Below are positions 2,926 through 36,583 of a stretch of DNA of 37,138 nucleotides, one piece after another. The notes under the pieces are model-generated. The model was not told the DNA's origin and ran no database searches. It saw only the letters and a program-made list of their open reading frames with translations. Origin of the DNA: Candidatus Hydrothermota bacterium (GTDB taxonomy: Bacteria > Hydrothermota > Hydrothermia > UBA1063); assembly GCA_003644895.1 (NCBI GenBank), contig QNDO01000001.1, forward strand, positions 1 to 37,138. The letters are read 5' to 3'. Position 1 is the stretch's first letter. The number at the start of each line of letters is the position of its first letter. The translations under genes were made by a program, and so were the position numbers.

Positions 2926-2927
2926 GG

Positions 2928-4385: not shown

Positions 4386-4723
4386 CTCATCTCCTTTATT
4401 TTTCTAATATCTAAGGAATTATTCTTTTCATATATTCTTACTACTATAGAAAGAGCCATTGCAGTGACAGCAACACCTATAACTATGGCTGTGAGAACAA
4501 GAGCCTGAGGTATAGGATCAACCACTTTTGTCCAAGTTTTGTTCATAATAGGTGCAGTTCCACCACTTATATACCCTGTGGTTATAAGAAGAAGATTCAC
4601 CCCTGTCTCCATAATATTCAATCCAATTATAATCTTGATGAGATTCCTTTTGGTTGCTGCGATCATGATTCCGCCAATAATTAAAGCAATGGCAGCACCG
4701 TAAAACATTGCTCCGCCATTCAT
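4379..4723 (-). CDS. MrpC/NuoK-like small membrane subunit (MbxG-equivalent)
   Basis: 114 aa with three TM segments and the block IGLNIMETGVNLLLI, typical of MnhC/NuoK. It has an ATGA overlap with the upstream gene. Confidence 0.8.
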   Translation of the reverse strand: MNGGAMFYGAAIALIIGGIMIAATKRNLIKIIIGLNIMETGVNLLLITTGYISGGTAPIMNKTWTKVVDPIPQALVLTAIVIGVAVTAMALSIVVRIYEKNNSLDIRKIKEMRW

Positions 4724-5403
4724 TTCTCTTCCTCCTTAAGATTTCTAAGAACACCGGTCATCTCGGCTCCCACTTTGAATCCAATTAAAATATAGATAAG
4801 GGGAATAATTCCGGCGCTCAGCAACTTGCCGGGTATACCTTTAGGGAGGAAGTTAGCAAGAAAACTGTTTAGCATTACAAGTCCTAACAGCCCTGTGATA
4901 ACATAGAGTATACCTGCTGTTCCTTCGGTGAGAGAAAGGGTTTTTTCAGAAACTTCCTTTTGTGTATAGGCTAAGAATAAGAGGAGAAAGGCAGAAGCTA
5001 TAATCACCCCTCCGGGAAAACCACCTCCAGGTGTTAGATGTCCGTGAACAAATACATATGTGCCAAAAAGAATGATAAGTGGAAAGATATATCTTGCTGC
5101 TGTGCTGACAATTAGAGAAGAGGGTTCTTTTTCTTTCGATTTAAATCTCAATCCGTGAAGCAGGGCTCCAAGAGCTGTGGCAGCAAGGAAAAGTACAGTT
5201 ACTTCTCCGAGTGTATCAAAACCCCTGTAAAGAACCACCACCGCAGTGACAATATTCTGGGAACCTGTCTCCTTCATTCCGTAATCTATATAATGTCTGG
5301 CAACAACTGTTTTGTCCTCGCCGAAAGTATTATATTTAACCACACTGTAAAGAGACAGTCCTAGCAGTACAAATAGAAGAATAATCAATACTTTTTTTAT
5401 CAT
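4720..5403 (-). CDS. MrpB (MnhB-domain) membrane subunit (MbxF-equivalent)
   Basis: 227 aa containing the MnhB signature NIVTAVVVLYRGFDTLGEVTVLF. It has an ATGA overlap with the upstream gene. Confidence 0.8.
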   Translation of the reverse strand: MIKKVLIILLFVLLGLSLYSVVKYNTFGEDKTVVARHYIDYGMKETGSQNIVTAVVVLYRGFDTLGEVTVLFLAATALGALLHGLRFKSKEKEPSSLIVSTAARYIFPLIILFGTYVFVHGHLTPGGGFPGGVIIASAFLLLFLAYTQKEVSEKTLSLTEGTAGILYVITGLLGLVMLNSFLANFLPKGIPGKLLSAGIIPLIYILIGFKVGAEMTGVLRNLKEEEK

Positions 5404-5651
5404 TTTTCAAACCTCTCTGTTTTCTTCAAAACATAAACGAAAATACCTGTTGTGAGTCCTGCTCCAATTGCAGCTTCGGTGATAGCTACATCTGGTGCTT
5501 GAAGGATTAAATAAAGGATAGATGCTATCAGACTGATGGTACCTGAAGAGAGTACCGCTACAAGAAGATCTTTTGTGACCCAAGCTACTATGGTAGCACC
5601 GAGCATGAAGAGGACCAAGATGGAAACAAATATGATAATTATACTACTCAT
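5400..5651 (-). CDS. DUF4040/MbhD-MbxD-like small membrane subunit (MrpA C-terminal-like)
   Basis: The block LQAPDVAITEAAIGAGLTTG is typical of the DUF4040/MrpB-N family. I prefer the start at MSSIII (5651) because the track start at 5681 would overlap the MrpG-like gene by 38 nt. Confidence 0.7.
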   Translation of the reverse strand: MSSIIIIFVSILVLFMLGATIVAWVTKDLLVAVLSSGTISLIASILYLILQAPDVAITEAAIGAGLTTGIFVYVLKKTERFEK

Positions 5652-5970
5652 CTTTTTCCTCCCCGTATTGATCAACAACACTTTTTTCTGTTAATTTAAC
5701 CCCCATTTTGTAGCTTGCTCTCCCTATGGCATGGGCTGCGACGGGGTTTGTGAGAAGTAAGAAGAATGCAATAACGAGTGACTTGAGGAACCAGGAGGGT
5801 TCTATTATGCCCACACCCACTATGGTGGAAAAAGCTCCGAGTGTTGTGCATTTTGTTCCTGCCTGCAGTCTGTTGTAAACATCGGGCATTCTGAAGACTC
5901 CGAGGGAACCCAGAAACAAAAAGATAACTCCGATTAAAATCAATATTTCACCAAAAATCATGTTCCACAT
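5644..5970 (-). CDS. MrpG (MnhG) subunit (MbxC-equivalent)
   Basis: 108 aa with FRMPDVYNRLQAGTKCTTLG and NPVAAHAIGRA, which are MnhG/PhaG hallmarks. A GGAGG lies 6 nt upstream. Confidence 0.85.
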   Translation of the reverse strand: MWNMIFGEILILIGVIFLFLGSLGVFRMPDVYNRLQAGTKCTTLGAFSTIVGVGIIEPSWFLKSLVIAFFLLLTNPVAAHAIGRASYKMGVKLTEKSVVDQYGEEKDE

Positions 5971-6242
5971 CAGAGACCTCCTTCGAAATACCTAGCAATG
6001 GCAAGCACAGTTATGAAGGCAAGGACTGCATATACAAGGGCAACATCCATATATATTCCTCTCTTGAAGAAAAGAGAGAACAGAACAAGAAGTGCTGTTG
6101 TTACTGTAGTCATGGCATCGACTGAGACAACTCTGTCAGAGGAGGTAGGACCAAGAATAAACCGGAGGAAAAGCAGAAACAGGCCCAGAAGAATAAAGCC
6201 TGCATAGATATACCACATCAATCCAGAAACCGCTTGAGACAT
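5970..6242 (-). CDS. MrpF (MnhF) subunit (MbxB-equivalent)
   Basis: 90 aa with three TM segments and an LGPTSSDRVVSVDAMTT block typical of MnhF. A GGGAGG lies 8 nt upstream of the ATG at 6242. Confidence 0.8.
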   Translation of the reverse strand: MSQAVSGLMWYIYAGFILLGLFLLFLRFILGPTSSDRVVSVDAMTTVTTALLVLFSLFFKRGIYMDVALVYAVLAFITVLAIARYFEGGL

Positions 6243-6718
6243 CTTTCAAACCTCCCTGATATGGCTTTTGATGCTTCTTCTGTATCGGTTGTTTGTACAT
6301 TTATCCAGTGGATATACAGGGTATCATCCTTAATATCCAGAGTGAAGGTTCCTGGGGTAAGTGTAATGGAATTGGCAACAAGGAGCTTACCAAGATCACT
6401 TTTCATATTGGTTTTGATCTTTACAATGCCGGGTTTAATAGGTAGTTTTGGGTGAATTACTCTATACGCAACATCGAGGTTTGCCTTTATCATCTCCCAG
6501 ATGAGATAAGGAAAGTAAATAATTCCGCAGAATATTTTTTTGGGAGTAAGGTTCAAAAGTCCCTTTTCAGTAAAGTAGCGGTATGTGAAGAGTGCCAGTA
6601 CAAGAGAAATTACGACTCCGGCAATGAGTTCCTCTGAATCTAATTTACCAGTGAAAATTACCCAGAGGATAAACATAATAATGGCTGTATACAGCCATCT
6701 GGAGATGTTTTTCATCAT
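6218..6718 (-). CDS. MrpE (MnhE) subunit (MbxA-equivalent), first gene of the operon
   Basis: 166 aa with two N-terminal TM segments followed by a soluble domain (ANLDVAYRVIHP, ITLTPGT), as in MnhE. A GGAGG lies directly upstream, and the ATG may be at 6718 or 6715. Confidence 0.75.
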   Translation of the reverse strand: MMKNISRWLYTAIIMFILWVIFTGKLDSEELIAGVVISLVLALFTYRYFTEKGLLNLTPKKIFCGIIYFPYLIWEMIKANLDVAYRVIHPKLPIKPGIVKIKTNMKSDLGKLLVANSITLTPGTFTLDIKDDTLYIHWINVQTTDTEEASKAISGRFERCLKRFLD

Positions 6719-6757: not shown

Positions 6758-6781
6758 GACACTTTAATCATGTTTTGTCAA
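6753..6781 (-). promoter_or_regulatory. Sigma-70-type promoter for the Mrp/Mbx-like operon (TTGACA-17-CATAAT)
   Basis: On the minus strand, TTGACA is the complement of 6776-6781. A 17-nt spacer follows, and CATAAT is the complement of 6753-6758. The promoter lies about 35 nt upstream of the MrpE-like ATG. Confidence 0.6.
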
Positions 6782-6843
6782 GCATTACTCTTTCCTTGAA
6801 ATTTCGTCCTCAAGAATCTAAAATTTACCAAAAGGAGGCTAAA

Positions 6844-7188
6844 ATGAAGGCGAAAGCGGTTCATTATACAGAAATTGTGGAAAAACCTGTAGAAATGGAA
6901 GGTGTTAAGGATGTTACAATAAGATGGTTGATTTCGGTAGAGGATAATGCACCAAATTTCTATATGAGAATGTTTACAGTTCAACCTGGTGGTTATACAC
7001 CATACCATTCACATCCTTACGAACACGAGGTTTTTATTCTCGAAGGAGAGGGGATTGTGGTAATAGAGGATAAAGAGCACAAAATGAAAGAAGGATATGT
7101 TATAGCTGTTCCTCCAGATGTAAAGCATCAGTTTAAAAATACAGGAAATGGAGCTTTAAGATTTTTATGTTTGATTCCAAAGCGTTGA
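6844..7188 (+). CDS. Small single-domain cupin protein
   Basis: The cupin_2 motifs are present (GGYTPYHSHPYEHEVFILEGEG ... PPDVKHQFKNTG). I prefer the ATG at 6844 (AAGGAGG 6 nt upstream) over the track start at 6775. Confidence 0.8.
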   Translation: MKAKAVHYTEIVEKPVEMEGVKDVTIRWLISVEDNAPNFYMRMFTVQPGGYTPYHSHPYEHEVFILEGEGIVVIEDKEHKMKEGYVIAVPPDVKHQFKNTGNGALRFLCLIPKR

Positions 7189-7189
7189 A

Positions 7190-8098
7190 TTAGAAACCCC
7201 ACAACAGTTCTAAGCCTATATATACTGTTCCGGAGGGTTGGGGTTTGGTATATAAAGTCGCACCAGCTTCAATTTTAAGATAATCTCGAAGGATGATTTT
7301 AATATCATATAGCATAATTGTGTTTTTATTTGTCACATCATAAATAAGGAGGACATAAGGTATCTCAAAAACCTTCTGGGGAAATGTGAACTCAACGGCT
7401 GTGATGAAGTCCGATTGAAAAATTCCACCTGGAAGATGAATCAGAAACTTATGATTGGCGTGAAGAAAATGTAAACTCGCAATTGTACCTACTATATTCT
7501 TCTCAACCATACCATGTAGTGTGTTATTATCATCTTCCCTGAAGAAGCTTAATCTTACAGTCCATGGACCTATGTAAGCGCCGAATATCCCTTTTTTGAA
7601 TTCTTTTTCATTTCTACCGTATAAACCAAGTAAAAATCTGCCGTAATCAAGCTGAATTTCGGCTTCTTCATTCCAGTTATTTTTATTTCTGTATATGAAA
7701 ATATTTGAGGTAAAATTAGAAGATGAATACCTTAAAAATCCACCCCAATCTCCTTCAAGATGGGTAGCAATAGTATTAAACATATTTTTTCTTGAAAGTG
7801 GATTAAAGACACTTGGGAAACCTGGTATGTAGACTAATTTTCCGCCTTTTAATTCAAACCTTTTAAAATACAGTTTTCCGTAAAACTGAAAGAGCTTCCA
7901 TTTTTTCTCTTCTTGTTCTTTGTAGTTATAGTAAGTATATCCACCAGTACTATACAACCTCACGTTATTGAATCGAGCTTTCATGTTCAAGATTGGGCTT
8001 GCATAAATTCCAGCTTCATCGTCACCGTGCCTAAAAGTTACAAAAGAATCAAAGGTAAAGGTGAAATGAAAAGCAGTGAAAAGGAGTATGATTATCAT
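7190..8098 (-). CDS. Predicted outer-membrane beta-barrel of unknown family (cassette B)
   Basis: 302 aa with an N-terminal signal-like segment, a Tyr/Phe/Gly/Asn-rich alternating pattern, and a C-terminal beta-signal ending ...GLELLWGF. It has an ATGA overlap with the LolA-like gene. Confidence 0.6.
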   Translation of the reverse strand: MIIILLFTAFHFTFTFDSFVTFRHGDDEAGIYASPILNMKARFNNVRLYSTGGYTYYNYKEQEEKKWKLFQFYGKLYFKRFELKGGKLVYIPGFPSVFNPLSRKNMFNTIATHLEGDWGGFLRYSSSNFTSNIFIYRNKNNWNEEAEIQLDYGRFLLGLYGRNEKEFKKGIFGAYIGPWTVRLSFFREDDNNTLHGMVEKNIVGTIASLHFLHANHKFLIHLPGGIFQSDFITAVEFTFPQKVFEIPYVLLIYDVTNKNTIMLYDIKIILRDYLKIEAGATLYTKPQPSGTVYIGLELLWGF

Positions 8099-8802
8099 TT
8101 ATAAAGCGTTTCTTTAGAAAAGAAGCTTTCGGGAATTTTTATATCAAACTCCAACTTTTTATATGTAATTCGTGTGGAGGAGTTTCTCATTCTCAGATCC
8201 TGTATAATGAAGTCGGTAATATAATATCGCTCGCCAAATCTGGAAATTGTGAAAGCTTTTATTTCTTTTATTTTTCTTCCGCTTTTTGTAAAAAGTTCTT
8301 CTTTCCAAGGCACGTATTTTGTTTTATCTACAAAAAGCTTTACACGATAATATTGTGCCTTTCCCGTGGTGTCTACGAGTTCCAAAATGTATACCCCATG
8401 TCCTTCAAGAACTGTATCCTTAATTATTTTCCCACTATAATAGCTAAAAGGGTCATCCTCCATTAGGTCTTCATAAGATAAGTCACTTCCCATTAGAGAT
8501 TGTTTCAGCATATCTCCCGAGATTCTTACCACGTCATCGATGTCTGGAAGATAAATATATAAATCCCTTTCAAGCTTGAGATATTTCACATCTCTATCTT
8601 CTGGGTTAGTGAAGACAATAAGAAAATCGTTTCCTTTACCATATCCATAAAATTCTTTGAGGAGCCTTTTCTTACCCTTTTTTATCTCCATTGTGGCTTC
8701 AAATTTGATAGATTCAATTTTCGTGTTTTCCCTTAACTTTTTGAGTATAAAATCGGGCCTCACTTGCTGTAGAAGTAATGCTAAAAATATTATCTTTATC
8801 AT
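8095..8802 (-). CDS. LolA-like 'outer membrane lipoprotein-sorting' family periplasmic protein (cassette B)
   Basis: 235 aa with a signal peptide lacking a lipobox Cys. The blocks MGSDLSYEDLMED and VDKTKYVP are shared with the paralogue at 16389-17105. A GGAGGG SD is present. Confidence 0.75.
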   Translation of the reverse strand: MIKIIFLALLLQQVRPDFILKKLRENTKIESIKFEATMEIKKGKKRLLKEFYGYGKGNDFLIVFTNPEDRDVKYLKLERDLYIYLPDIDDVVRISGDMLKQSLMGSDLSYEDLMEDDPFSYYSGKIIKDTVLEGHGVYILELVDTTGKAQYYRVKLFVDKTKYVPWKEELFTKSGRKIKEIKAFTISRFGERYYITDFIIQDLRMRNSSTRITYKKLEFDIKIPESFFSKETLYK

Positions 8803-8813
8803 AATTCCCTCCT

Positions 8814-10019
8814 TTAAACCTGTCTCAATGCTTCTTGAGGGGTAAGTTTTCTTGCATAGAGTGCAGGAAATACACTAGATAATGCTGATATTATAAGAGT
8901 GAGCAGGAAAGCAAAAAGGAACACTTTAAAATTTGCCTCTGGTCTGATTATATAAGGCATAGGGAAAGCTGTATTTTTTAGTATTGACTCTACATTTATA
9001 CCCTTTATTGAAAGACCATATGCAAAGAGAAGTCCCAAAAGGGATCCGAAGAATCCCCCTAATGCACCAAGCATTGTCCCTTCCATTCCGAATAACATAA
9101 ACACTTCGTTATCTGTCATTCCTATTGCCTTGAGAGTTCCAATTTCTCTCAGTCTTTCAAAAACTGCAACTGTCATGGTATTAATTATAGCAAAAGTTGC
9201 AAGTCCTATTATAAGGATGTAAATAAAACCGTAGAATACACCTGCTAATTTAAAATATACCCCGAATGTGCCCAAAAGCTCCATGTAAGATTTTGCATCT
9301 AAGTCCGGGGGAAGTTTCAGCTTGGTTTTTAACTCGGGAATTTGTTTATCATTTTGGAGGAATAACAAAATTTCTGATGCACCTTCCTTGGTTTTTAACA
9401 GTTTTCTTGCGTGTTTTAAAGACATTAGGATGAAGCTTCTATTTAACGTGCTCATGCCAAAGTTTGCTATGCCTGAAACTGGAAGCTTAATACCATTTAA
9501 ACCACCAAGAGTCGTGCGGGAGAGTATGATTAAAGTATCGCCAGGATTTATTTTTAAAGAATTTGCAAGTTCTTTACCCAAAATGAAACCAGATTCAAGA
9601 TTACCAGAACCTGTTATAATCCTGCTTTTAATATTTATAGTGCTTTTTTCTTTTTCTGGGTCAATGGCCATTACATAAGCAGGCTTTGTTGTGTTATCTC
9701 TTGAAATCAAGGCAGTAAATTTAATTCTTGGTGCAACAAGTTTTACCTCCTTGAATTTTAGGAGGTTATGGATTATGGGAGAGGGCTCCTCTATGAGTTC
9801 ATCTACAGGTAGAAAAACTCTTTTTCGCAGGTATTCGGTTCGCGCTATGGTTATATGTCCTGTTTCCAGATTTATAACAGCTTCTTTTGTCCCATTCAAA
9901 AAACCTTGCACATAGCCATAGAGTGCTACTACCACAAAACTTGCCACAAAAAGTGACAACGCAGTTAAAAAACTTCTTCTTTTATTCCTTAATATATTTT
10001 TAAATGCCATCTTCATCAT
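8814..10019 (-). CDS. FtsX/MacB-type ABC permease with large periplasmic domain (LolE/LolC-sized)
   Basis: About 400 aa with the N-terminal block AFKNILRNKRRS, one TM, a periplasmic domain of about 220 aa, and three C-terminal TMs with ERLREIGTLKAIGMT. The start is ambiguous among the ATGs at 10019, 10016 and 10010. Confidence 0.85.
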   Translation of the reverse strand: MMKMAFKNILRNKRRSFLTALSLFVASFVVVALYGYVQGFLNGTKEAVINLETGHITIARTEYLRKRVFLPVDELIEEPSPIIHNLLKFKEVKLVAPRIKFTALISRDNTTKPAYVMAIDPEKEKSTINIKSRIITGSGNLESGFILGKELANSLKINPGDTLIILSRTTLGGLNGIKLPVSGIANFGMSTLNRSFILMSLKHARKLLKTKEGASEILLFLQNDKQIPELKTKLKLPPDLDAKSYMELLGTFGVYFKLAGVFYGFIYILIIGLATFAIINTMTVAVFERLREIGTLKAIGMTDNEVFMLFGMEGTMLGALGGFFGSLLGLLFAYGLSIKGINVESILKNTAFPMPYIIRPEANFKVFLFAFLLTLIISALSSVFPALYARKLTPQEALRQV

Positions 10020-11209
10020 ACCCACCTCAAGCATTCTGCTGGTGTCATTTTCATTGCCCGTTTTGATGGAAAATAGCTAGCAAAGATTGTTGTTAATGGT
10101 CCAAGAAATAGTGCCACAATAATACTTTTTATGTTCCATGTATTTTTCACAATCCCCATAACTTTATACCCTACATCCATGTCTTTGAGAAGTGGAGACC
10201 AATCAATGCCATGCACCACAAAATACCAGTTTATGAGGATTCCTATTATAACCCCTGAAAGAGAGCCCGCTACACCAATTAAAACCCCCTCGCTCAAGAA
10301 CAATTTCATAACTTCTCTGTCGGTCATACCAATTGCTTTTAGGGTGCCGATTTCTCTTGTTTTTTCAAAAACAGATATAAGTAAAGTATTCGCTGTGCCG
10401 ATAATACCAATAAGTATTATAAAAAAGAGAAGCACTGCTTGAGCTGCATTCTTTGTTTTGCTTATGGCGAGAAAGTCTGCACCTTCGTCTACCCAGGAGG
10501 TGATTTTGAATTTTTTGAAAGCAGAGATTAGTCTATTTTTATAGCTCTCAGCCTTGTTAAACTCATCAGTGAGAATATTTATTTGGGTAACTTCGTCTTT
10601 AAAATTCCCCATATCCCTTAAAAGATTAATATCAATGTAGATGTGAGAGTTATTAATTTCAAAGTCTGGGGTATTTAATATACTTTTTATTTCAACTTCT
10701 CTGGATACAATGATTCCATTCTTCCCTCTCATGTTGAGAAATAAATAATCTCCTTCTTTAACATCAAAGTGTTTCTTAATGGAAGAGCCAATCCAGATGC
10801 CATCACGAAGAGGAGCATCGGCGTATTCAAAAGTCTTAAAAACTGCTTTATCTCGCTCAGGATCTATTCCAACAATAACAACAGGGTATTGATCAATTCC
10901 ATTATCAAGAAATCCAACTATCTTTAAACGTTCTGTATAGGCTTTTATAAAGGGATATTTCTCTAATTTGTTTTCTATCTCCGAAGGGGTCTCTATGTAA
11001 CCCTCCAGGGTCTCCTCGTTAAAATCTTCTGAGCGAATAACCATATGGGAAGATTGCAATGCTATAAAGTTCCTGATAGATTCTTTTTCAAATCCTCCTA
11101 GCATTCCGGTTATCACAATGTAATAAGTGATTGCCACTGTCAGTATCCCAAAGGTAAGTAAAGTTCTGCGTTTGTCTCGTAGTAGATTTTTTAAAGCAAG
11201 CTTCCACAT
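10016..11209 (-). CDS. FtsX/MacB-type ABC permease with large periplasmic domain (LolC/LolE-sized)
   Basis: 397 aa with LALKNLLRDKRRT at the N-terminus and EKTREIGTLKAIGMT in the FtsX domain. It is a paralogue of the neighbouring permease. Confidence 0.85.
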   Translation of the reverse strand: MWKLALKNLLRDKRRTLLTFGILTVAITYYIVITGMLGGFEKESIRNFIALQSSHMVIRSEDFNEETLEGYIETPSEIENKLEKYPFIKAYTERLKIVGFLDNGIDQYPVVIVGIDPERDKAVFKTFEYADAPLRDGIWIGSSIKKHFDVKEGDYLFLNMRGKNGIIVSREVEIKSILNTPDFEINNSHIYIDINLLRDMGNFKDEVTQINILTDEFNKAESYKNRLISAFKKFKITSWVDEGADFLAISKTKNAAQAVLLFFIILIGIIGTANTLLISVFEKTREIGTLKAIGMTDREVMKLFLSEGVLIGVAGSLSGVIIGILINWYFVVHGIDWSPLLKDMDVGYKVMGIVKNTWNIKSIIVALFLGPLTTIFASYFPSKRAMKMTPAECLRWV

Positions 11210-11210
11210 A

Positions 11211-11894
11211 TCATTCTCCTACTATTTTACCATCTCTTAGTTTGATAATTCTCTTTGCATGTTCTACTATCAACGGGTCATGGGTAGAGAAAACGAAGGT
11301 AACACCCTTTTCGGCATTGAGCTTCCTCATGAGTTCAACAATACTTTTTCCTGTTTCACTGTCAAGGTTTGCGGTGGGCTCATCTGCAAGAACAAATTCC
11401 GGGTCTTTAACTAAAGCCCTTGCAATTGAGACTCTCTGTTGTTCCCCACCAGAGAGCTCTAACGGTTTCATATTCCACTTGTCTGAAAGCCCAACTGCTT
11501 CCAATATGGAAAGGATTCTTTTTTCTCTCTCCTTTTTTTGAAGATTTTTATAGCGAAGTTTTAAAGCAATTTCAACGTTTTCATACACCGTAAGGACAGG
11601 AATAAGATTAAAACTCTGGAAAATAAAGCCAAAGTAATTCCTTCTTAAAAGAGCAAGTTCCTCAGGTTTTTTTGTTTGTAATTCTTCACCGTGTAATGTT
11701 ACAGATCCCCGGGTTGGTAGGTCAATACATCCCATTATATTGAGAAGGGTTGTTTTTCCCGAGCCCGAGGGGCCTACAACGGCAGTAAATTCTCCTTTAC
11801 TTATCTGGAGGTCAATGCCTCGCAAAGCTTTAACTCTATATTTTCCGGATACATAAATTTTTTCTATATCTTTAAGTTCAATTACTATCATCAT
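11211..11894 (-). CDS. ABC transporter ATP-binding protein, LolD/MacB-type
   Basis: It carries Walker A GPSGSGKTT, a Q-loop, the signature LSGGEQQR, Walker B FVLADEPT, and an H-loop STHD. The start is probably the ATGATG at 11894/11891 after GGAGG, overlapping the TetR stop. Confidence 0.9.
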   Translation of the reverse strand: MMIVIELKDIEKIYVSGKYRVKALRGIDLQISKGEFTAVVGPSGSGKTTLLNIMGCIDLPTRGSVTLHGEELQTKKPEELALLRRNYFGFIFQSFNLIPVLTVYENVEIALKLRYKNLQKKEREKRILSILEAVGLSDKWNMKPLELSGGEQQRVSIARALVKDPEFVLADEPTANLDSETGKSIVELMRKLNAEKGVTFVFSTHDPLIVEHAKRIIKLRDGKIVGE

Positions 11895-12603
11895 ACCTCC
11901 TCTCATTAAAGTATGTTTCAATGACCTCCTTGATCATTTCCGGATACCCTTTTAATCCTAAAGAACCTTTCGGTAATGCCAGGATTCTTTCCATTGAGAT
12001 TAGATAGATTTTTTTTAACTCATAGATTTTTTCAATACAGTTCTGTTTTGTGTCAGAATTAAGAATTGTCCGCGCTACATCATCACCAAAATTACCCAAA
12101 AGTCTTGCAATAAGTCTCCCTGTGTACTCGGGGTACTGAATATCAAAAATACCCTCTTTTACTCCCTGACTAATGATCTTTGAAAAAATAGAGGCACTAA
12201 TTTCCAGATTTTTCTCATTCATTTTTTGTCGAAAAATTATATTTTTATCATCGTAATAAATCTTGAGATATACGATAATTTCCTTTTTAAATTTTTCAAT
12301 TTTTACTCTGATACTTTCCTCAAGGATCTTATTCAATTTTTCAATGGCATTAAGATTACTTTCTATTATGGGAGTTAAATGGAAAACTATAAATTTACTC
12401 ATTGCATCCACGATCTCTTCGAGTATTTCCATTTTGGAATTGAAATGGTAATACAATGTACCACGAGCTATTCCAGCTTTTCTTACGATATCTTCAATTG
12501 AGGTATTTTCAAAACCGTTTTTGTAAAAGAGTTCCACGGCTACCTTAAGAATCTCATCCTTTCTCTTTCTGGCTTCTTTCAATGTTCTCTTAGTTTTCTT
12601 CAT
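11878..12603 (-). CDS. TetR/AcrR-family transcriptional regulator (cassette B)
   Basis: It has a TetR_N helix-turn-helix (ILKVAVELFYKNGFENTSIEDIVRKAGIARGTLYYHFNSK) followed by a helical ligand domain. Confidence 0.9.
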   Translation of the reverse strand: MKKTKRTLKEARKRKDEILKVAVELFYKNGFENTSIEDIVRKAGIARGTLYYHFNSKMEILEEIVDAMSKFIVFHLTPIIESNLNAIEKLNKILEESIRVKIEKFKKEIIVYLKIYYDDKNIIFRQKMNEKNLEISASIFSKIISQGVKEGIFDIQYPEYTGRLIARLLGNFGDDVARTILNSDTKQNCIEKIYELKKIYLISMERILALPKGSLGLKGYPEMIKEVIETYFNERRYDDSN

Positions 12604-12606
12604 TTC

Positions 12607-12621
12607 GACCGACCGTCAGTC
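12607..12621. promoter_or_regulatory. Candidate TetR operator GACCGAC-c-GTCAGTC (one mismatch) abutting the TetR-B start codon
   Basis: Read directly. It shares the 10-mer TCGACCGACC with the box at 17712-17727 and lies 2 nt downstream of the -10 element. Confidence 0.6.
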
Positions 12622-12623
12622 TA

Positions 12624-12653
12624 ATTATAAAGGATATATTTTTGAGATGTCAA
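12624..12653 (-). promoter_or_regulatory. Sigma-70-type promoter of cassette B (TTGACA-18-TATAAT)
   Basis: On the minus strand, TTGACA is the complement of 12648-12653 and TATAAT is the complement of 12624-12629. The ATG lies 20 nt after the -10 element, and no Shine-Dalgarno is present. Confidence 0.65.
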
Positions 12654-12688
12654 GGAGACTATTTTAGTATGCCAACATCGATGCTTGC

Positions 12689-15286
12689 TTAATGGTGTTC
12701 CCTGCTCGACTCTCGCCTCACCAACCTCAAAAGTGGGGGGAGAAGGAAAAGGGTATACAGGAATGCAAGAGAAATGCCAACAAGAATCACTATGGCAAAG
12801 GAGGGATATCCTCGATATTTCCCTAGAAGAAGAGAACCAAAGGCGGCGCCGGTTGTCAAAGTTGTGTAAAATATTGCTCTTCCTATAAGAGTATATACAC
12901 CGGGTATAGAGCCCTCTTTTATGTATCTGTGCATTACATGGACTGCATCGTCAATTCCGATTCCTATAATTAGCGGGAATGCAAGAACATTGAGGAAATT
13001 CAGGGATACACCTGTGAGTCCAAGAACCACGAGAGTGGAGAAGAAAGCAAAGGTGACCGGAACATAGGAGATAAGAGATTTTGGAATACTTCTGAAATCA
13101 ATAAGAAGCAATATCAGAATTGTTGTAAATACAAGAATTAGGGCTTTCCTGCTCTCCCTCACTCCTGTGGTCCAGAGTACCCTCATAAGTATGGCCATAC
13201 CCGTTGCAGGAACTTTCTCACTCACTCTATCGATAAAGGTGCCTTTTCCAATATCATTCCAGATATCACCCTTTGAGAATATGGTAAGAAGGAAATATTT
13301 ACCGTCCTCGGATACAAATTTCTCTTTGACAGAGGTGGGGACATCCTCAAAGGCAATATATTCTGGAGTCGAAGCCGAAATTAAAAGTGGCTTTGTGACT
13401 TCAAAGAATTCTTTTCCTATTTGTTTTAATTTTTTCTGTGGCGCGTTTTTAATAGCCATATAAAGAGAATCCAGAAGACCCTTCTTGATGATATTTTCTG
13501 AGACTTCATAAACTCTATCAAGGCCGGAGATATAGGCGACGGTTTTAAGTTCCAGAATATTATTTTTTAACCTCTTTATCTGTGAAAGGAGAAGTTTCCT
13601 ATCTGTTCCATGATATGTCATCCTGCGAGCTTTACGGTGGATTTCTTTCACATATTTCATTTTATATTTCTGTTCCTTCTGAGGTGGACAGTAAAGATGA
13701 ATGCCCTCTACAAAGCTAACACCTGTAATTTTCTTGAGGATCGTCGCTAATGAGTCAGATTCTTCATAGCTCTGAGCCAGAGTCATGAGATAATCTGTGG
13801 ACATTCCAAATCGCTTAACTAGAGTATCATTTGCTGCAACTGATGCCAGTCCTTTTGCTTCAAGTTTTATAGGATTTGCTTCTGATTCCATATGGGTAAT
13901 TCCATACGGTGCAATAATGACTATAATAATAGCCAGCATAATGGGAATGTACCATCTTCTTGCAACAAATCCAGCAATATTTCCAAAGGTGGGGATTTTC
14001 AGGTCTTTGCCCTGAAGCTTTTTGCCAAAAAGTGTTATGAGTGCAGGAAGCACAAAGATTGTGGCACTTACAGTAGTTATACATCCAAGTCCCACTACGA
14101 CCCCCAGTTCTTTTAGAGCATCGAAGGATGTGAAATAAAGAGAAAGAAAAGCTAATGCGGTGGTAAAGGCTCCTATGACAAGTCCCCTTCCTACTTTTGG
14201 TAGAGCCCCTTCTATTCCTTCCTTCTCCGTGGACGCCTGAAGTATATGTATTGAGTAATCGATTCCGAGACCTATAAGAATGGCAGCCATCATTGCCGTC
14301 ATCATGTTTAACCGGCCAAATAGAATCTGGGTCAATCCCAGATCCCAGAGAATACCAAACAGAAGTGGTATGCCAGCCAGAATGGGAGCGAGAATTATGC
14401 GGAAACCGATAATAAATAGAGCTATAACAAGAATAAAAGAGACCACCGTGGTAACATTCATATCCCTCATTCCAGTGACATATTCATCTCGCATTATAGA
14501 GTACATACCGGTATCCATAATTTTTGTATGATTATGAGCTTTTTCTATTTTTTTGATGACATTTCTGATACTATCCACTCCTGCTATGATGTGGGGAAAG
14601 GCAGCAAGGTCTGATATTCCCCATCTAGGTTGAACAGAGATTAACACCATTCTATTATCCAAGGATTTAAAATATAGAGGACCTAAAAGTAGCTCTTTTG
14701 TTCCAAGTTCAAAATAATCACGCTCACCTGTTCTAATATATTTTTGAGTTCCATAAATAAAATCTTCCAACGCAAGGAGTGATTGAGTGGCCTCCAGCTC
14801 TTGAGCGGACAGGTTTTCTTCTTTCTCAATATATTCAGACTCTAAATCATCGTTGTATTTGAGTAGGAAACTGTCCATGTCAAGGCTAGTAATCATCTTT
14901 GCAACCCTTTCTATGAGAGAGGAGTCTATGAGCATTAAAGCGTGCTTCTCGAGAAAGTCTTCTGGCTGTTTTAATGTAACAGTTTTAGTAAAACTTTTTA
15001 TTTTTTCAACAGAGTCTTTTACCTCTTCTGCTATTGCGAGGAGAGATTCTGGTATAGGATGCTCCACTACAATAAGCAGCCCGCCCTCATTTCCAAATCT
15101 CTCTATCACAGTATTGTAAAGTGCAAGGGAAGGATGTTTTTTGGGAATTATATTAAGCCATGTCATTTCCATTCGGAGGTGTGCAGCAAAGTATACCATT
15201 ATGAGTGTGAAAACCACAGAAAGTCCGAGAACTAACTTTGGCCTTTTAATAGAGATATGGGTTATAAGATCGAATAGTCTCTGCAT
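12689..15286 (-). CDS. MMPL/COG1033-type RND-superfamily exporter (cassette A)
   Basis: 865 aa in a duplicated architecture: two 6-TM bundles, each after a large periplasmic domain. Sterol-sensing/MMPL-like blocks are LGIDYSIHIL and GIGIDDAVHVMHRY. A GGAGG SD is present. Confidence 0.85.
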   Translation of the reverse strand: MQRLFDLITHISIKRPKLVLGLSVVFTLIMVYFAAHLRMEMTWLNIIPKKHPSLALYNTVIERFGNEGGLLIVVEHPIPESLLAIAEEVKDSVEKIKSFTKTVTLKQPEDFLEKHALMLIDSSLIERVAKMITSLDMDSFLLKYNDDLESEYIEKEENLSAQELEATQSLLALEDFIYGTQKYIRTGERDYFELGTKELLLGPLYFKSLDNRMVLISVQPRWGISDLAAFPHIIAGVDSIRNVIKKIEKAHNHTKIMDTGMYSIMRDEYVTGMRDMNVTTVVSFILVIALFIIGFRIILAPILAGIPLLFGILWDLGLTQILFGRLNMMTAMMAAILIGLGIDYSIHILQASTEKEGIEGALPKVGRGLVIGAFTTALAFLSLYFTSFDALKELGVVVGLGCITTVSATIFVLPALITLFGKKLQGKDLKIPTFGNIAGFVARRWYIPIMLAIIIVIIAPYGITHMESEANPIKLEAKGLASVAANDTLVKRFGMSTDYLMTLAQSYEESDSLATILKKITGVSFVEGIHLYCPPQKEQKYKMKYVKEIHRKARRMTYHGTDRKLLLSQIKRLKNNILELKTVAYISGLDRVYEVSENIIKKGLLDSLYMAIKNAPQKKLKQIGKEFFEVTKPLLISASTPEYIAFEDVPTSVKEKFVSEDGKYFLLTIFSKGDIWNDIGKGTFIDRVSEKVPATGMAILMRVLWTTGVRESRKALILVFTTILILLLIDFRSIPKSLISYVPVTFAFFSTLVVLGLTGVSLNFLNVLAFPLIIGIGIDDAVHVMHRYIKEGSIPGVYTLIGRAIFYTTLTTGAAFGSLLLGKYRGYPSFAIVILVGISLAFLYTLFLLPPLLRLVRRESSREHH

Positions 15287-15297
15287 GTCCGCCTCCT

Positions 15298-16392
15298 TTA
15301 AAATCCTACTCTTATCCTGAATATTACTCCATCGTTTATATTGGAGTATTCTGTACCATCCCTTCCTAACCCAACATAGCTTGTAATCTGAAGAGATGTA
15401 TAATCATTGAAAGAATAACTTATTCCTGGCATTACAATTGTACTTTTGTCATTTATGTTGGTGATGGAAGAGATCTTGAATGTAAATAGCTCGTGTATTC
15501 TTTCCAGATTGAAAAAAAACTCATTTTGGCCCATGGTCAGTGTATACCCCGAAAAATAATCAAGCCAATCTGCAGGATTGTAATCTCTGAAATTATCCTT
15601 ACCTTCTTCGTTTCTTAAATATTCCAAAAGACAAGAAGTAAGGCCATCGTTAAATGTATAATCAATCCCTAAAAGGCCTATTTTCTTTTTTGTTTTTAGA
15701 TTATAGGTGCCCTCACCGTGTACACCAATACCCAAGAATTCTGTGGAGAAGTCCAGGGTAAAAATTTTGTTTTTTTTCTTAAAAGGTAAAAATATAACAG
15801 GATCCATATAAGTACTAAGGTAGTCCAAATAGCCCAGAGAAAAATCCAAGAACCCCTTTACATTACCTCTCAATCTTCCTCCATATGAGGATGAATCAAT
15901 GCTATTTTCTGGAATATATAATAGATCGACGTCGAAGGAACCCGCAATATCCAAGAACATTCTTAATGCGTCTACACCGTCAAGTTCGTAGGAGGGATCC
16001 AAAATAGATTTTTTCTGAAAAACATTTGTGGGATTAAAAGCATATCCTGTTCCCCAGCCTATCTGCTGTCTCCCAAATTGTAGAGTGAGGGGAGATATTC
16101 TCACCCTCAGAAAAGCATTTCTGAAATAAAGCCTGGATTTATATGTAAAAGGTATGGAGGGTAGTGCGTACTCGGGCATGAAGTCAGCAAGATCGTACTG
16201 TGTTTTACCGTGATACGAAATATACACTAGGTCTGTTCTAAAATAGGAGGAAGAAATTCTCTGTCTCGATGTAAGATTTAGCTTACTATAGCCTACAAAT
16301 TTGTATTCGCCCTTTAAATTAAAAATTTCCCCTTGATATTCAAAAAACCCTTCCGGTTTAATTGCTAGTATGACAAAAAGGAGGATATTCAT
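15298..16392 (-). CDS. Predicted outer-membrane beta-barrel of unknown family (cassette A)
   Basis: 364 aa with a signal-like N-terminus, the block QFGRQQIGWGTGYAFNPTNVF, an aromatic/Gly/Asn-rich alternating pattern, and a C-terminal beta-signal ...VIFRIRVGF. It has an ATGA overlap with the LolA-like gene. Confidence 0.6.
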   Translation of the reverse strand: MNILLFVILAIKPEGFFEYQGEIFNLKGEYKFVGYSKLNLTSRQRISSSYFRTDLVYISYHGKTQYDLADFMPEYALPSIPFTYKSRLYFRNAFLRVRISPLTLQFGRQQIGWGTGYAFNPTNVFQKKSILDPSYELDGVDALRMFLDIAGSFDVDLLYIPENSIDSSSYGGRLRGNVKGFLDFSLGYLDYLSTYMDPVIFLPFKKKNKIFTLDFSTEFLGIGVHGEGTYNLKTKKKIGLLGIDYTFNDGLTSCLLEYLRNEEGKDNFRDYNPADWLDYFSGYTLTMGQNEFFFNLERIHELFTFKISSITNINDKSTIVMPGISYSFNDYTSLQITSYVGLGRDGTEYSNINDGVIFRIRVGF

Positions 16393-17105
16393 TCTTCAGA
16401 TACCTCCCTGAGCCTTTTTGGAGAAAAGAGATCATCCTCCACTTTGGTTTTGTAGTCAATTCTTATAGTCCGGATTTCTGTTTCGGAACCTGTTTCATTG
16501 TTTCTCATGACTACGTGCATGGGAGTTGGAATATAATCCACTATCTTTATATCTTCCTGAATAAGTGTTTTATATGGTTTATCTTCGCCTTTTCGGTAGA
16601 AATCTACTACAAGCGGAACATAGGTCTTTTTGTCAACTCTGAGCACCAGTTTCCCATAAGAAATTTTAACATTTTCTTTTGGTATCAGTGTAAGAACGTA
16701 AATATCTTTCTCCTCATTCAGATTTACAGGTTTAAATTTCTTTTTGTAGGTTCCCATCGTCATATCTTCGTATGTAAAATCAGAACCCATCATCTTTTGT
16801 TTCTTTGCGTGAGACGCAATTTTTCTTATTCTTCCTGTTTCAGGGAAGTAGGCCCATACATTGTCACCAATAATGAGAAAGCTGTTTCCTCGAACTTGAG
16901 GAGGGAATATATACACCATCAGCTGTTTGTCCATACCATTTTTAGTATAAAATTTTATTTTGAATGTCCTCTTTTTCCCGGTGGTAGTGATGATAGTTTC
17001 TTCCATAACTCCTATGGAGTGGGGAAATATAGCCACACTATCAACTTTACTTAGAAGTTCCTCAGGACTCAACGCCAGTATAATGAACGTAAATAATGTA
17101 AACAT
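16389..17105 (-). CDS. LolA-like 'outer membrane lipoprotein-sorting' family periplasmic protein (cassette A)
   Basis: 238 aa with a signal peptide lacking Cys. The blocks MMGSDFTYEDM and VDKKTYVP match the paralogue at 8095-8802. Confidence 0.75.
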   Translation of the reverse strand: MFTLFTFIILALSPEELLSKVDSVAIFPHSIGVMEETIITTTGKKRTFKIKFYTKNGMDKQLMVYIFPPQVRGNSFLIIGDNVWAYFPETGRIRKIASHAKKQKMMGSDFTYEDMTMGTYKKKFKPVNLNEEKDIYVLTLIPKENVKISYGKLVLRVDKKTYVPLVVDFYRKGEDKPYKTLIQEDIKIVDYIPTPMHVVMRNNETGSETEIRTIRIDYKTKVEDDLFSPKRLREVSEE

Positions 17106-17108
17106 TTC

Positions 17109-17708
17109 CTACCTCCTGCTGATTCCCTTCAAAACAGTATCAAGGAAATCTTCTGTGATTCTTTCTAGGTCTATTTCCTCCCTAAATAACATGGCATGAA
17201 ACAGAATGCCGTCCATGAAAGCAAGTAAACTCCTGGATAAATTTTCGACATTAACTGTTTCTTTGAATTCTTCTTTTTTTATGCCTTCTTCCAGAATTTT
17301 TCGTGTGATTCTCAGGTACTTTTTATACATATCCCTGAAATCAAATTTTAAATGGTTTCTTATGCCCTCACTCCAGAACTCTGTCATGACCATAATTGCT
17401 TCTCTGGGCATATTTTCCACTAATTCTAGATATCCTGTCACCAGTGCCTTTATTTTCATGGAGGCACTCATATTAGGTTTCACCTTTTGGAAAGCATATT
17501 CATCCAAGGCTTTGAAGAGGTGGACAATAAGAGAAGTAAATAGGTCCTCTTTACTCTCGAAATATTCGTAAATTGTCCCTTTCCCAACACCTGCATGCTC
17601 TGCAATTTCTCTCATTCGGGTCCTGTGGTAGCCTTTCCGCGAAAAAAGATACAGGGCAGCTTCAAGAATTTTAATCCGTTTATTTTTATTATTTTTGGTA
17701 TCAAACAT
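17109..17708 (-). CDS. TetR/AcrR-family transcriptional regulator (cassette A)
   Basis: It has a TetR_N HTH (ILEAALYLFSRKGYHRTRMREIAEHAGVGKGTIYEYFESK). I prefer the ATG at 17708 because the track's upstream extension to 17759 runs through the promoter and operator. Confidence 0.88.
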   Translation of the reverse strand: MFDTKNNKNKRIKILEAALYLFSRKGYHRTRMREIAEHAGVGKGTIYEYFESKEDLFTSLIVHLFKALDEYAFQKVKPNMSASMKIKALVTGYLELVENMPREAIMVMTEFWSEGIRNHLKFDFRDMYKKYLRITRKILEEGIKKEEFKETVNVENLSRSLLAFMDGILFHAMLFREEIDLERITEDFLDTVLKGISRR

Positions 17709-17711
17709 ATC

Positions 17712-17727
17712 GACCGACCAGTCGGTC
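17712..17727. promoter_or_regulatory. Candidate TetR operator GACCGAC-ca-GTCGGTC (perfect 7+7 inverted repeat)
   Basis: Read directly. It lies 3 nt downstream of the -10 element and 3 nt upstream of the TetR-A ATG. Confidence 0.65.
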
Positions 17728-17730
17728 AAA

Positions 17731-17759
17731 ATTATATAATAAGTCTTGCATAATGTCAA
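17731..17759 (-). promoter_or_regulatory. Consensus sigma-70 promoter of cassette A (TTGACA-17-TATAAT)
   Basis: On the minus strand, TTGACA is the complement of 17754-17759 and TATAAT is the complement of 17731-17736, with a 17-nt spacer counted base by base. Confidence 0.7.
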
Positions 17760-21568: not shown

Positions 21569-21741
21569 AGGAGAAAATAGAAGTATTGGAGAAAAAAATA
21601 GAAATTTTATTGAATGAGTTTGAAAAGGTGAAAAGGGAGAACATTGAGCTCAAAGAGAGACTCCAGAATATTCTCGAAAAACTTGAAAATGTTGAAAAAA
21701 AACTTCAAAATACAATTAACAAACTGGATGCAATACAATGA
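21565..21741 (+). CDS. 58-aa all-coiled-coil protein (ZapB-like / cell-division-associated candidate)
   Basis: My own translation gives MKEKIEVLEKKIEILLNEFEKVKRENIELKERLQNILEKLENVEKKLQNTINKLDAIQ. ATGA overlaps link it to pheT upstream and zapA downstream. It is below the length cut-off of the ORF track. Confidence 0.6.
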   Translation: MKEKIEVLEKKIEILLNEFEKVKRENIELKERLQNILEKLENVEKKLQNTINKLDAIQ

Positions 21742-22040
21742 ATCTTGAGCTCTTTAACACAAACAAAACTCGTGGAAAAATTACCATAAAGGGAATAAAT
21801 TATGAGTTTGAAACAGATCTCACCCCAGAAGAGTTTGAATATTTGAGTAATTATATTTCAGAAAAAATCAAAGAGCAGGAAGATAGAATGATGTTCATGC
21901 GGAACAATGTAGAGTTTGTTTCAGTATTAATCGCTGTGATTTACGAAATTGCAAGAGAGCTGATACTTTTAAAGAAAGAGCAGAGTGAGTTAGAAGAAAA
22001 ACTGGAGAGAATATACAAGAGGATTGAAGCATGTGTATAG
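21738..22040 (+). CDS. zapA: Cell division protein ZapA-like
   Basis: 100 aa with an N-terminal beta domain (ITIKGINYEF) and a C-terminal coiled coil. The position downstream of pheT is typical for zapA. Confidence 0.7.
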   Translation: MNLELFNTNKTRGKITIKGINYEFETDLTPEEFEYLSNYISEKIKEQEDRMMFMRNNVEFVSVLIAVIYEIARELILLKKEQSELEEKLERIYKRIEACV

Positions 22041-36371: not shown

Positions 36372-36583
36372 TTTGACTGCCGAACCCTTAGCATTTAATA
36401 TAATACGCACATTATGGAGGGATTTCTGAAAAATTTAAGATGCCCACTTTTACAGTCAGGTGTAAAAGTTAAATCTATTTATATATCATTCAATGAATCA
36501 GTGGTGATTCCGAAAGATGCATCAGATAAGTTCTTATGAATAATTTCCAATGAATACACGTAATTGTTCATAGGAGGTGTAAA

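Follow-up and report, generated by a model that had tools for sequence, protein, structure and literature searches.

Operons that combine a TetR regulator, an inner-membrane transporter, a LolA-like protein and an outer-membrane protein are known from oral Bacteroidota. PG1178-81 of Porphyromonas gingivalis, which encodes a TetR regulator (PG1181), an MMPL transporter (PG1180), an “outer membrane lipoprotein-sorting protein” (PG1179) and a protein annotated as a porin (PG1178), is one transcriptional unit with a self-regulating TetR, and is induced 84-fold by nitric oxide stress (PMC11018363). It is also induced 13- to 136-fold on iron depletion (PMC10434189), ranks with the genes that excess haemin represses most (PMC10470040), and as late as 2026 was described as a transport system yet to be characterised (PMC13096392). 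Three similar operons with adjacent ATP-binding cassette (ABC) genes occur in Prevotella intermedia (PMC10434189). Here we analyse a stretch of 37,138 nucleotides (nt) from a Candidatus Hydrothermota bacterium (contig QNDO01000001.1, hereafter the window), the minus strand of which carries, from position 17759 down to 7190, two consecutive cassettes of this general kind: cassette A, with a resistance-nodulation-division (RND) transporter, and cassette B, with an ABC transporter (Table 1). The reading that we lean towards is that these are two paralogous, TetR-autorepressed export systems for hydrophobic or amphiphilic cargo other than protein, in which the LolA-like protein serves as a periplasmic shuttle rather than as part of a continuous duct.

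Cassette A is an operon of a type already noticed in P. gingivalis, with analogues in Proteobacteria. Judged by published composition, it has the same four components as PG1178-81 in one TetR-headed operon, but the gene order is different, being TetR-MMPL-carrier-barrel in P. gingivalis and TetR-carrier-barrel-RND in the window. The operons of Prevotella intermedia are ordered TetR-ABC-ABC-MMPL-“lipoprotein-sorting protein”-hypothetical; the adjacent ABC genes of P. gingivalis and Prevotella are annotated as “ABC transporter ATP-binding proteins”, and no FtsX permease gene is listed in the operon. The inducers of PG1178-81 (iron or haem limitation and nitric oxide) are reported for oral Bacteroidota alone. 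As this TetR-MMPL-“lipoprotein-sorting protein”-“porin” operon has already been studied at the regulatory level, the cassette is less novel than the original prediction presumed; PG1178-81 has no known cargo, and the match to a characterised system of known cargo that the prediction had allowed for was not found.

The proteobacterial analogue is AmeABCD of Castellaniella defragrans, the deletion of which cuts monoterpene tolerance and efflux of the dye Nile Red (PMC6394551); clusters of DUF1302, DUF1329, BNR and COG1033 genes show cofitness (bioRxiv 10.1101/072470). The likeness to such DUF1302/DUF1329/RND clusters had been put forward in the original prediction, and it is a fair analogy, as AmeABCD and cassette A both combine an HAE3-type RND transporter, a LolA-superfamily protein and a dedicated barrel in one operon, that of AmeABCD being inducible and linked to the handling of hydrophobic compounds. 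However, the AmeABCD barrel is a DUF1302 protein of ~600 amino acids (aa) and its carrier a DUF1329 protein of ~450 aa, whereas the barrels of the present family have 302-450 aa and no Pfam match and the window carriers are PF17131 proteins of ~240 aa. The Ame type also has a BNR/Ycf48-like fourth component, of which there is none in the window, and no ABC-driven sister system has been described for it. With no DUF1302, DUF1329 or BNR protein, the cassettes fall outside the AmeABCD group, and the superfamily link comes from one protein of the census described below that matches both carrier families.

Cassette B is a variant of Lol/MacB-type machinery. Like Lol, it has a LolD-like ATPase, two LolC/E-like FtsX permeases and a soluble protein of LolA fold, and by analogy with Lol its machinery would draw cargo out of the inner membrane and hand it on to the carrier. 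It differs from Lol in scoring under every Lol threshold, in being repressed by a TetR rather than housekeeping, and in the partner of the carrier, the acceptor being a lipoprotein in Lol and a predicted integral 18-stranded barrel in cassette B. The Lol-like route with a barrel in the place of LolB that was first proposed is a putative one, the Lol thresholds being missed. With MacAB-TolC cassette B shares an FtsX/MacB-type permease that bears the MacB periplasmic core domain, along with a partner ATPase, but ATPase and permease are separate proteins, the permease is heterodimeric, and scans of the window ORFs found neither a membrane-fusion protein nor a TolC-like duct. Among characterised transporters and solved structures, HpnN is nearest to the 865-aa pump of cassette A, although the pump scores far under the HpnN cutoff; unlike cassette A, HpnN operates without a dedicated carrier or barrel partner (PMC6394551). 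In Thalassolituus, a protein that fuses MMPL and LolA-like domains, encoded next to a “porin”, is induced on C28 alkane (PMC6304351), and this fusion supports a physical partnership of pump and carrier.

All ten minus-strand open reading frames (ORFs) claimed in the original prediction were found where it had placed them, and the domains it expected all hold in a Pfam profile search (Table 1). Gene content and order are the same for all ten genes in a sister contig (L083, 91% identical at the barrel B protein), where independent calls give gene lengths equal or nearly equal to those of the window. Genes are closely packed, with 4-nt overlaps at 16389-16392, 10016-10019 and 8095-8098, a 17-nt overlap of the TetR_B and ATPase genes, and gaps of 1-11 nt at the remaining junctions. 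The shared components are paralogous, the TetR pair being 24% identical (E 3e-10), the permease pair 28% (E 3e-45) and the LolA-like pair 28% (E 7e-14), the last with the predicted MGSD(F/L)(T/S)YED and VDK..YVP blocks in place. A recent tandem duplication is rejected as the origin of the pair, given this 24-28% identity and a barrel tree that splits by motor type.

Table 1. Features of cassettes A and B in the window, listed from the promoter of cassette A onwards.
Feature	Positions	Strand	Evidence
Promoter A	17731-17759	-	TTGACA-17 nt-TATAAT, 12/12 consensus
Operator A	17712-17727	-	palindrome GACCGAC-TG-GTCGGTC, between -10 box and TetR_A ATG
TetR_A repressor, 199 aa	17109-17708	-	TetR_N E 2e-20, plus several TetR C-terminal domain families
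LolA-like A, 238 aa, predicted soluble periplasmic carrier	16389-17105	-	PF17131 E 4e-47
Barrel A, 364 aa, predicted 18-stranded outer-membrane beta-barrel	15298-16392	-	AlphaFold2 and Foldseek; loop motif GRQQIGWGTGYAFNP
HAE3/MMPL-type RND transporter, 865 aa	12689-15286	-	MMPL E 6e-26
Promoter B	12624-12653	-	TTGACA-18 nt-TATAAT, 12/12 consensus
Operator B	12607-12621	-	palindrome GACTGAC-G-GTCGGTC
TetR_B repressor, 241 aa	11878-12603	-	TetR_N E 6e-18
LolD/MacB/DevA-type ABC ATPase, 227 aa	11211-11894	-	ABC_tran E 4e-33
FtsX permease 1, 397 aa, LolC/E-like	10016-11209	-	FtsX E 2e-24
FtsX permease 2, 401 aa, LolC/E/F-like	8814-10019	-	FtsX and MacB_PCD periplasmic core domain
LolA-like B, 235 aa	8095-8802	-	PF17131 E 5e-46
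Barrel B, 302 aa, predicted 18-stranded, rare family	7190-8098	-	AlphaFold2 and Foldseek; motif remnant GKLVYIPGFPSVFNP

Neither barrel matches any Pfam or NCBIfam family, even at permissive thresholds, or DUF1302, even at E <= 10, and neither barrel family profile finds a match among PDB sequences. The 364-aa family is small in protein databases (14 matches among 5.8 billion clusters) and for the rare 302-aa family an exhaustive representative search of 1.8 billion proteins gave 13 members, against just 3 proteins in a word-index search with the family alignment. That both are barrels, as originally predicted, is borne out by AlphaFold2 models built on a 14-sequence family alignment for barrel A and an 11-sequence alignment for barrel B: barrel A has 18 long antiparallel strands (predicted local distance difference test, pLDDT, 86.5; predicted template modelling score, pTM, 0.80) and barrel B has 18 strands (pLDDT 89.5, pTM 0.81). 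In Foldseek searches of the PDB, the model of barrel A finds outer-membrane channels only (OmpM1, a Rhodobacter porin, OccAB1, OprB and AlgE; best E 3e-10, TM up to 0.64), and that of barrel B finds 18-stranded OprD/Occ channels best (TM 0.65-0.71, E 2e-9; OccK11 at TM 0.71); taken together, the channels matched have 16-18 strands. Both proteins begin with a short hydrophobic helix and end in phenylalanine, the C-termini ...FRIRVGF (barrel A) and ...LELLWGF (barrel B) being as first described.

In both models the sole long non-strand segment of the first half follows the fifth long strand and carries the most conserved residues of the family. The motif of the 364-aa family is GRQQIGWGTGYAFNP, in which G107, G114, T115, G116, Y117, N120 and P121 are invariant, and that of the 302-aa family is GK.V.IPGF..(L/V)FNP, barrel B itself having the remnant GKLVYIPGFPSVFNP. 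The two barrels have no detectable similarity in BLASTP (E 0.31). In profile-profile comparison the motifs of the two families align (probability 27.5%, E 6.5e-4), and the barrel B family reaches a probability of 17% (E 1.5e-3) against the RND-linked barrels of other genomes, with reversed-column controls at E ~0.6. These sequence comparisons are no more than suggestive of homology between barrels A and B, which have in common their fold, strand number, loop position and gene context.

The loop motif, of general form G(R/K)xxxxWGTGYAFNP, made it possible to follow these barrels across genomes. A motif-guided scan of one genome per species yielded 77 loci, from which 76 barrel ORFs were recovered, the loci being typed by tblastn with the ten proteins of the window as probes. 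The census covers Fibrobacterota, Chitinispirillia, Delongbacteria, Gemmatimonadota, Spirochaetes, Hydrogenispora-like “Bacillota”, KSB1, Calditrichota, Ignavibacteriota, Kryptoniota, Bacteroidota, Desulfobacterota and Terriglobia, and the loci closest to barrel A (42% identity) are from metagenome-assembled genomes (MAGs) of candidate division WOR-3, which makes a WOR-3-related source probable for the window. Motif barrels accompany an RND transporter and a PF17131 gene in 33 of the 76 cases and an ABC ATPase with an FtsX permease in 34; two loci have both cassette types, and seven have too little flanking DNA to be classed. ABC-type loci of other phyla have the order ATPase, single FtsX permease, PF17131, barrel. 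The PF17131 gene was detected by tblastn in 19 of 35 ABC-scored loci, ORF inspection adds three more (L041, L053 and L064), and the carriers scanned from ABC-type loci all match PF17131 (3/3, E ~1e-40 to 1e-45). A Pfam scan of four ABC-locus barrels returned no family, and six barrel relatives from other phyla gave nothing in Pfam or NCBIfam but a sub-threshold Porin_4 match for P0013 (E 0.003).

A neighbour-joining tree of the barrels is cleanly split into an ABC-linked and an RND-linked clade, which are homologous to one another (hhalign probability 99.9%, E 1.5e-35). This split by motor type points to an ancient bifurcation of a carrier-plus-barrel module with two motors and not to frequent motor swapping or recent re-coupling. 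The original prediction had the same module coupled, side by side, to two motors. Motor type tracks barrel phylogeny, the pattern of two ancient sister systems; a shared module is upheld across phyla, where the two clades are homologous, but within the window barrels A and B are linked weakly.

Both cassette types stand side by side in at least two further loci, one of Fibrobacterota (L012; order RND, carrier, barrel, ATPase, FtsX, FtsX) and one of an uncultured bacterium (L009; RND, SPFH protein, ATPase, FtsX, FtsX, carrier B, barrel, carrier A, barrel). From the tree and these loci, the two systems appear to be ancient sister lineages that tend to stay side by side. The gene that adjoins the RND gene in both loci encodes an SPFH/Band-7 (stomatin/flotillin-like) membrane scaffold protein (L009:1943-2902, L012:887-1861), which has no equivalent in the window. 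The 4-nt overlap of carrier and barrel genes recurs in both window cassettes and in L001, L002, L085, L086, L088, L041 and L055, which suggests translational coupling of a fixed pair. In Bacteroidia MAGs, two loci (L025 and L040) have a motif barrel with PF17131, and L025, where the barrel has 420 aa, also has MMPL. The L025 locus has in addition a 654-aa N-glycanase_C-like protein (6902-9613) encoded between the MMPL and PF17131 genes, and its PF17131 protein also scores on DUF1329 (E 6e-10), bridging the two carrier families.

Relatives of cassette B proper are fewer. Two loci (L085 and L086) keep its order of ATPase, FtsX, FtsX, PF17131 and barrel at 30-34% identity, and a third (L088) has carrier and barrel only. 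A metagenome scan seeded with the carrier gave more than 600 stretches, of which the best 80 loci were examined; these are all relatives of LolA-like B, so the scan is uninformative on RND-type carriers. Among these best 80, carriers sit 3' of an ATPase-FtsX-FtsX series wherever upstream sequence exists, and a TetR gene lies further upstream in 13 loci. No description of the ABC/FtsX-PF17131-barrel version was found in the literature.

The two carriers are firm members of PF17131 (160.5 and 157.0 bits against a gathering cutoff of 30), which is their sole Pfam family at E <= 0.01. Their relatives in the PDB are 3BK5, 4Z48 and 3BUU, all structural-genomics entries, and 9TP6, LolA3 of P. gingivalis. 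LolA-like A has a short hydrophobic N-terminus. The original prediction noted the absence of a lipobox cysteine; neither protein has any cysteine at all, hence neither is a lipoprotein. A literature search found no functional characterisation of PF17131 or TP0789-type carriers, nor of a pairing of HAE3 pumps with LolA.

The pump of cassette A scores 91.6 bits on MMPL (cutoff 20.5) in two stretches and has the HAE3 architecture. Its best full-length match is the HpnN model TIGR03480, to which residues 8-854 align with 311 bits against a cutoff of 752, and its closest solved structure is HpnN (5KHN, E 3e-31). Other curated RND subfamily models are likewise not reached (NF052374, 219 against 1100 bits; TIGR00921, 146.5 against 352). 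Hopanoid or sterol export of the HpnN/BstA kind is rejected on these scores, far under their cutoffs, and on the lack of biosynthesis genes nearby, Pfam scans of the window ORFs having found no hopanoid (hpn) genes.

The best two sigma-70 matches in the 11-kb region are promoters A and B, both on the minus strand, and downstream of each lies a palindrome, ending 3 nt short of the TetR ATG. The operators had been called near-identical, which is correct save for one substitution and a 1-nt difference in spacer; the 10-mer common to both, GGTCGGTCGA, is found nowhere else in the window (two occurrences, against an expectation of 0.01). The listed TetR_A start, TTG 17759, is rejected, as that TTG belongs to the -35 hexamer TTGACA of promoter A; the true start is ATG 17708, as called in L083. 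Operator A is unchanged in L083 despite a diverged promoter A spacer, operator B is identical in L083 and L084, and, of 30 related loci with a TetR gene, 12 have an operator-like palindrome (<=3 mismatches) 5' of that gene, among them WOR-3 MAGs, Fibrobacterota, one Gemmatimonadota MAG and Hydrogenispora-like MAGs, compared with a background of 1.9% in random windows of the same loci. This conservation makes the palindromes a phylogenetic footprint. In the classic arrangement of a TetR autorepressor the operator lies between the -10 box and the start codon, as it does here, and both regulators combine a TetR_N helix-turn-helix with a palindrome in their own promoter region, to which they are predicted to bind until a putative ligand releases them. 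As claimed, nothing resembling a terminator separates the RND stop codon from promoter B, which starts 35 nt past that stop, so that transcription may read through from cassette A into cassette B.

Two further observations concern regulators. The TetRs heading RND cassettes in L001, L006, L007 and L024 (other WOR-3 MAGs and Fibrobacterota) are closer to TetR_B (E ~1e-20 to 1e-29) than to TetR_A (E ~1e-8 to 1e-10), which suggests regulator exchange or rearrangement in the lineage of the window. In four loci of Ignavibacteriota and KSB1 (L041, L045, L055 and L064) there is no TetR, and the ABC-type cassette is followed by genes for a LytS-like membrane histidine kinase and a LytTR-type response regulator, identified by sequence appearance at ~10.9-12.8 kb (~4.5-6.6 kb in L045); in L053 a kinase-like ORF alone is visible before the locus ends.

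The mechanism that we envisage for the two export systems has the following steps. From the anatomy of the sites and the nature of the family, a TetR dimer bound to GAC(C/T)GAC-N1-2-GTCGGTC would block transcription until a ligand frees it, for which PG1181 is a published precedent of TetR autoregulation. An inner-membrane extractor would then lift cargo from the outer leaflet of the inner membrane, as in the mechanisms of HpnN and LolCDE; in cassette A this would be the HpnN-like HAE3 RND pump, driven by proton-motive force, and in cassette B a LolCDE-like type VII ABC machine of two different FtsX permeases and an ATPase. The cargo would be handed to the soluble PF17131 carrier of LolA fold and brought by it to the dedicated barrel, the 18-stranded fold of which is confidently predicted and the role of which is putative, with the conserved loop after strand 5 as the probable site of docking or translocation. 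We infer the direction of transport, a shuttle as opposed to a bridge, and the nature of the cargo. The two cassettes probably answer related signals and handle related cargo.

Several points weigh against this reading. A detectable barrel gene lies downstream in just 4 of 23 well-flanked ABC-FtsX-FtsX-PF17131 loci from metagenomes, and the 19 others are followed by unrelated ORFs or by ORFs of the opposite strand. A motif barrel is thus invariably a sign of a carrier and a motor, but many ABC-carrier cores stand without an adjoining barrel, and the barrel may be non-essential to the ABC route. The claim that the trio of carrier, barrel and extractor is conserved accordingly survives for motif barrels, which are accompanied by PF17131 and a motor wherever flanks suffice, and is weakened as an obligatory trio for the ABC version by these 19 loci. 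Barrel B shows just weak homology to the motif barrels (probability 17-27%), visual inspection was the sole basis for the signal peptides, and within the window the cassettes have no genes for cargo biosynthesis beside them. The induction of the P. gingivalis operon in haem and iron starvation alongside uptake systems could point to import.

The alternative that survives best, which we nevertheless consider rather improbable, is that the cassettes encode conventional drug or solvent efflux pumps, in which the LolA-like protein takes the part of a membrane-fusion protein, as a static adaptor bridging pump to barrel in a duct for xenobiotics, as proposed for AmeABCD. A TetR beside an RND or ABC pump is the classic efflux paradigm, AcrR and MtrR are among the top NCBIfam matches of the TetRs, the AmeABCD deletion phenotypes described above are those of efflux, and the window lacks biosynthetic neighbours. 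However, Pfam scans of the ten cassette proteins and 20 other large window ORFs found no match to HlyD or membrane-fusion proteins or to TolC and the outer-membrane efflux protein family. The carriers are of ~24 kDa, and a LolA-type half-barrel of that size is too small to bridge the periplasm. The barrels look like porins, Occ channels and AlgE, and their predicted secondary structure includes no extension into the periplasm. HAE3 pumps of the HpnN kind are described as releasing substrate into the periplasm without a duct (PMC6394551). A duct-type pump is thus disfavoured by the lack of an adaptor or TolC-like gene and by the small carrier.

It is less probable still that cassette B performs housekeeping Lol lipoprotein sorting, with the barrel as a LolB substitute or an unrelated neighbour. 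The resemblance is considerable: the lolCE and LolD models are among the top NCBIfam matches, the closest PDB relatives of permease 1 are LolE and LolF and that of permease 2 is LolF (9W37, E 2e-22), with LolC also among the nearest solved structures, two distinct permeases are present as in LolC/LolE, the carrier has the LolA-superfamily fold, and the barrel-less ABC-FtsX-FtsX-PF17131 core is very common. Yet every equivalog score is far under its cutoff, with 136 against 362 bits for lolCE (TIGR02212), 227 against 307.75 for LolD (TIGR02211) and 52-96 against 439-540 for the LolE and LolC exception models, and the ATPase scores ~228 bits on the DevA, LolD, MacB and DarD models alike, each time under the cutoff. 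The carriers do not match the canonical LolA model at E 0.01, and cassette B includes neither a canonical LolA nor a lipoprotein gene, an integral barrel being encoded 3' of the carrier instead. In P. gingivalis, the PF17131 protein LolA3 does not bind the cognate LolB, from which its authors infer a separate function (PMC13103446), and deletion of lolA3 in Flavobacterium johnsoniae leaves gliding and the type IX secretion system unaffected, unlike deletion of lolA1 (PMC11885536). A TetR repressor with a strong operator over cassette B and the 4-nt carrier/barrel overlap kept in relatives are also at odds with a housekeeping role. The missed thresholds, the wrong carrier family, the negative LolA3 data and TetR control together make this explanation unlikely.

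Import of a scarce hydrophobic nutrient (haem or porphyrin, long-chain alkane or fatty acid), passing from barrel to LolA-like protein to inner-membrane machine, we hold to be equally improbable. The barrels do resemble substrate-specific uptake channels of the OprD/Occ type, PG1178-81 and its Prevotella copies are induced 40-220-fold by iron or haem limitation together with Hmu and TonB-dependent uptake systems (PMC10434189, PMC10470040), and the Thalassolituus MMPL-LolA-like fusion and its “porin” neighbour respond to C28 alkane (PMC6304351). Against this, a Pfam scan of the ten cassette proteins found no substrate-binding protein of the ABC importer type, and there is no indication of haem auxotrophy or alkane use in the thermophile-like source organism. 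To our knowledge, RND and type VII (MacB/LolCDE-type) ABC transporters are known only as exporters or extractors.

The remaining window is unremarkable chromosomal DNA, which encodes an Mrp/Mbh-type antiporter cluster, a cupin, rplT-pheST, RNase Y, cmk, ispH, rpsA, radical SAM enzymes and a CDF transporter. The antiporter cluster, resembling cation/proton antiporters and directly downstream of the cassettes (236-6718, minus strand), has NADHdh, two Proton_antipo_M, MnhB/MbhE, MnhG, MrpF and MNHE subunits and is kept in L083. The cupin-domain gene (6775-7188, plus strand) is convergent with the barrel B gene, with one base between the stop codons, which leaves no space for an intergenic terminator of either gene. 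At ~17.8-18 kb gene orientation switches, from minus-strand genes on the left to rplT-pheST and other plus-strand genes on the right, and GC skew changes sign, with a minimum of cumulative skew; the skew switch may reflect coding-strand bias only. Two ORFs of 100 aa each (21738-22040 and 36568-36870) have no Pfam match. Among the census loci, a Terriglobia MAG (L067:10918-16305) has an ORF for a 1,795-aa type I polyketide synthase directly 3' of the barrel of its ABC-type cassette, a possible hint of polyketide or lipid cargo in that organism.

What is new here is the definition of the barrel family with its conserved loop, the split into RND-linked and ABC-linked clades, the recurrent co-location of both systems, and the conservation of the operator across phyla. 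How hydrophobic molecules other than lipoproteins and lipopolysaccharide (LPS) cross the periplasm is a long-standing question, especially outside Proteobacteria, and the locus with its census offers a compact test case, having a carrier, a dedicated barrel without a database model, and two well-understood types of motor. Homologous carrier/barrel pairs that work with either an RND or an ABC motor are a natural control for separating the share of the motor from that of the pair, and the conserved operator gives a handle on the inducing ligand and thereby on the likely cargo. The module is linked, moreover, to one of the most strongly regulated loci of P. gingivalis, an oral pathogen. As a tentative proposal, which we regard as possible rather than probable, PF17131 carriers and GTGYAFNP-type barrels may constitute a third, hitherto unrecognised periplasmic shuttle route to the outer membrane, beside Lol for lipoproteins and Lpt for LPS, the cargo of which would be a particular lipid or lipophilic metabolite, other than protein, of the Fibrobacterota-Chlorobi-Bacteroidota (FCB) group, Spirochaetes and relatives, and which would have existed since early bacterial evolution in proton-motive RND and ATP-driven ABC versions, some lineages keeping both under one type of operator.

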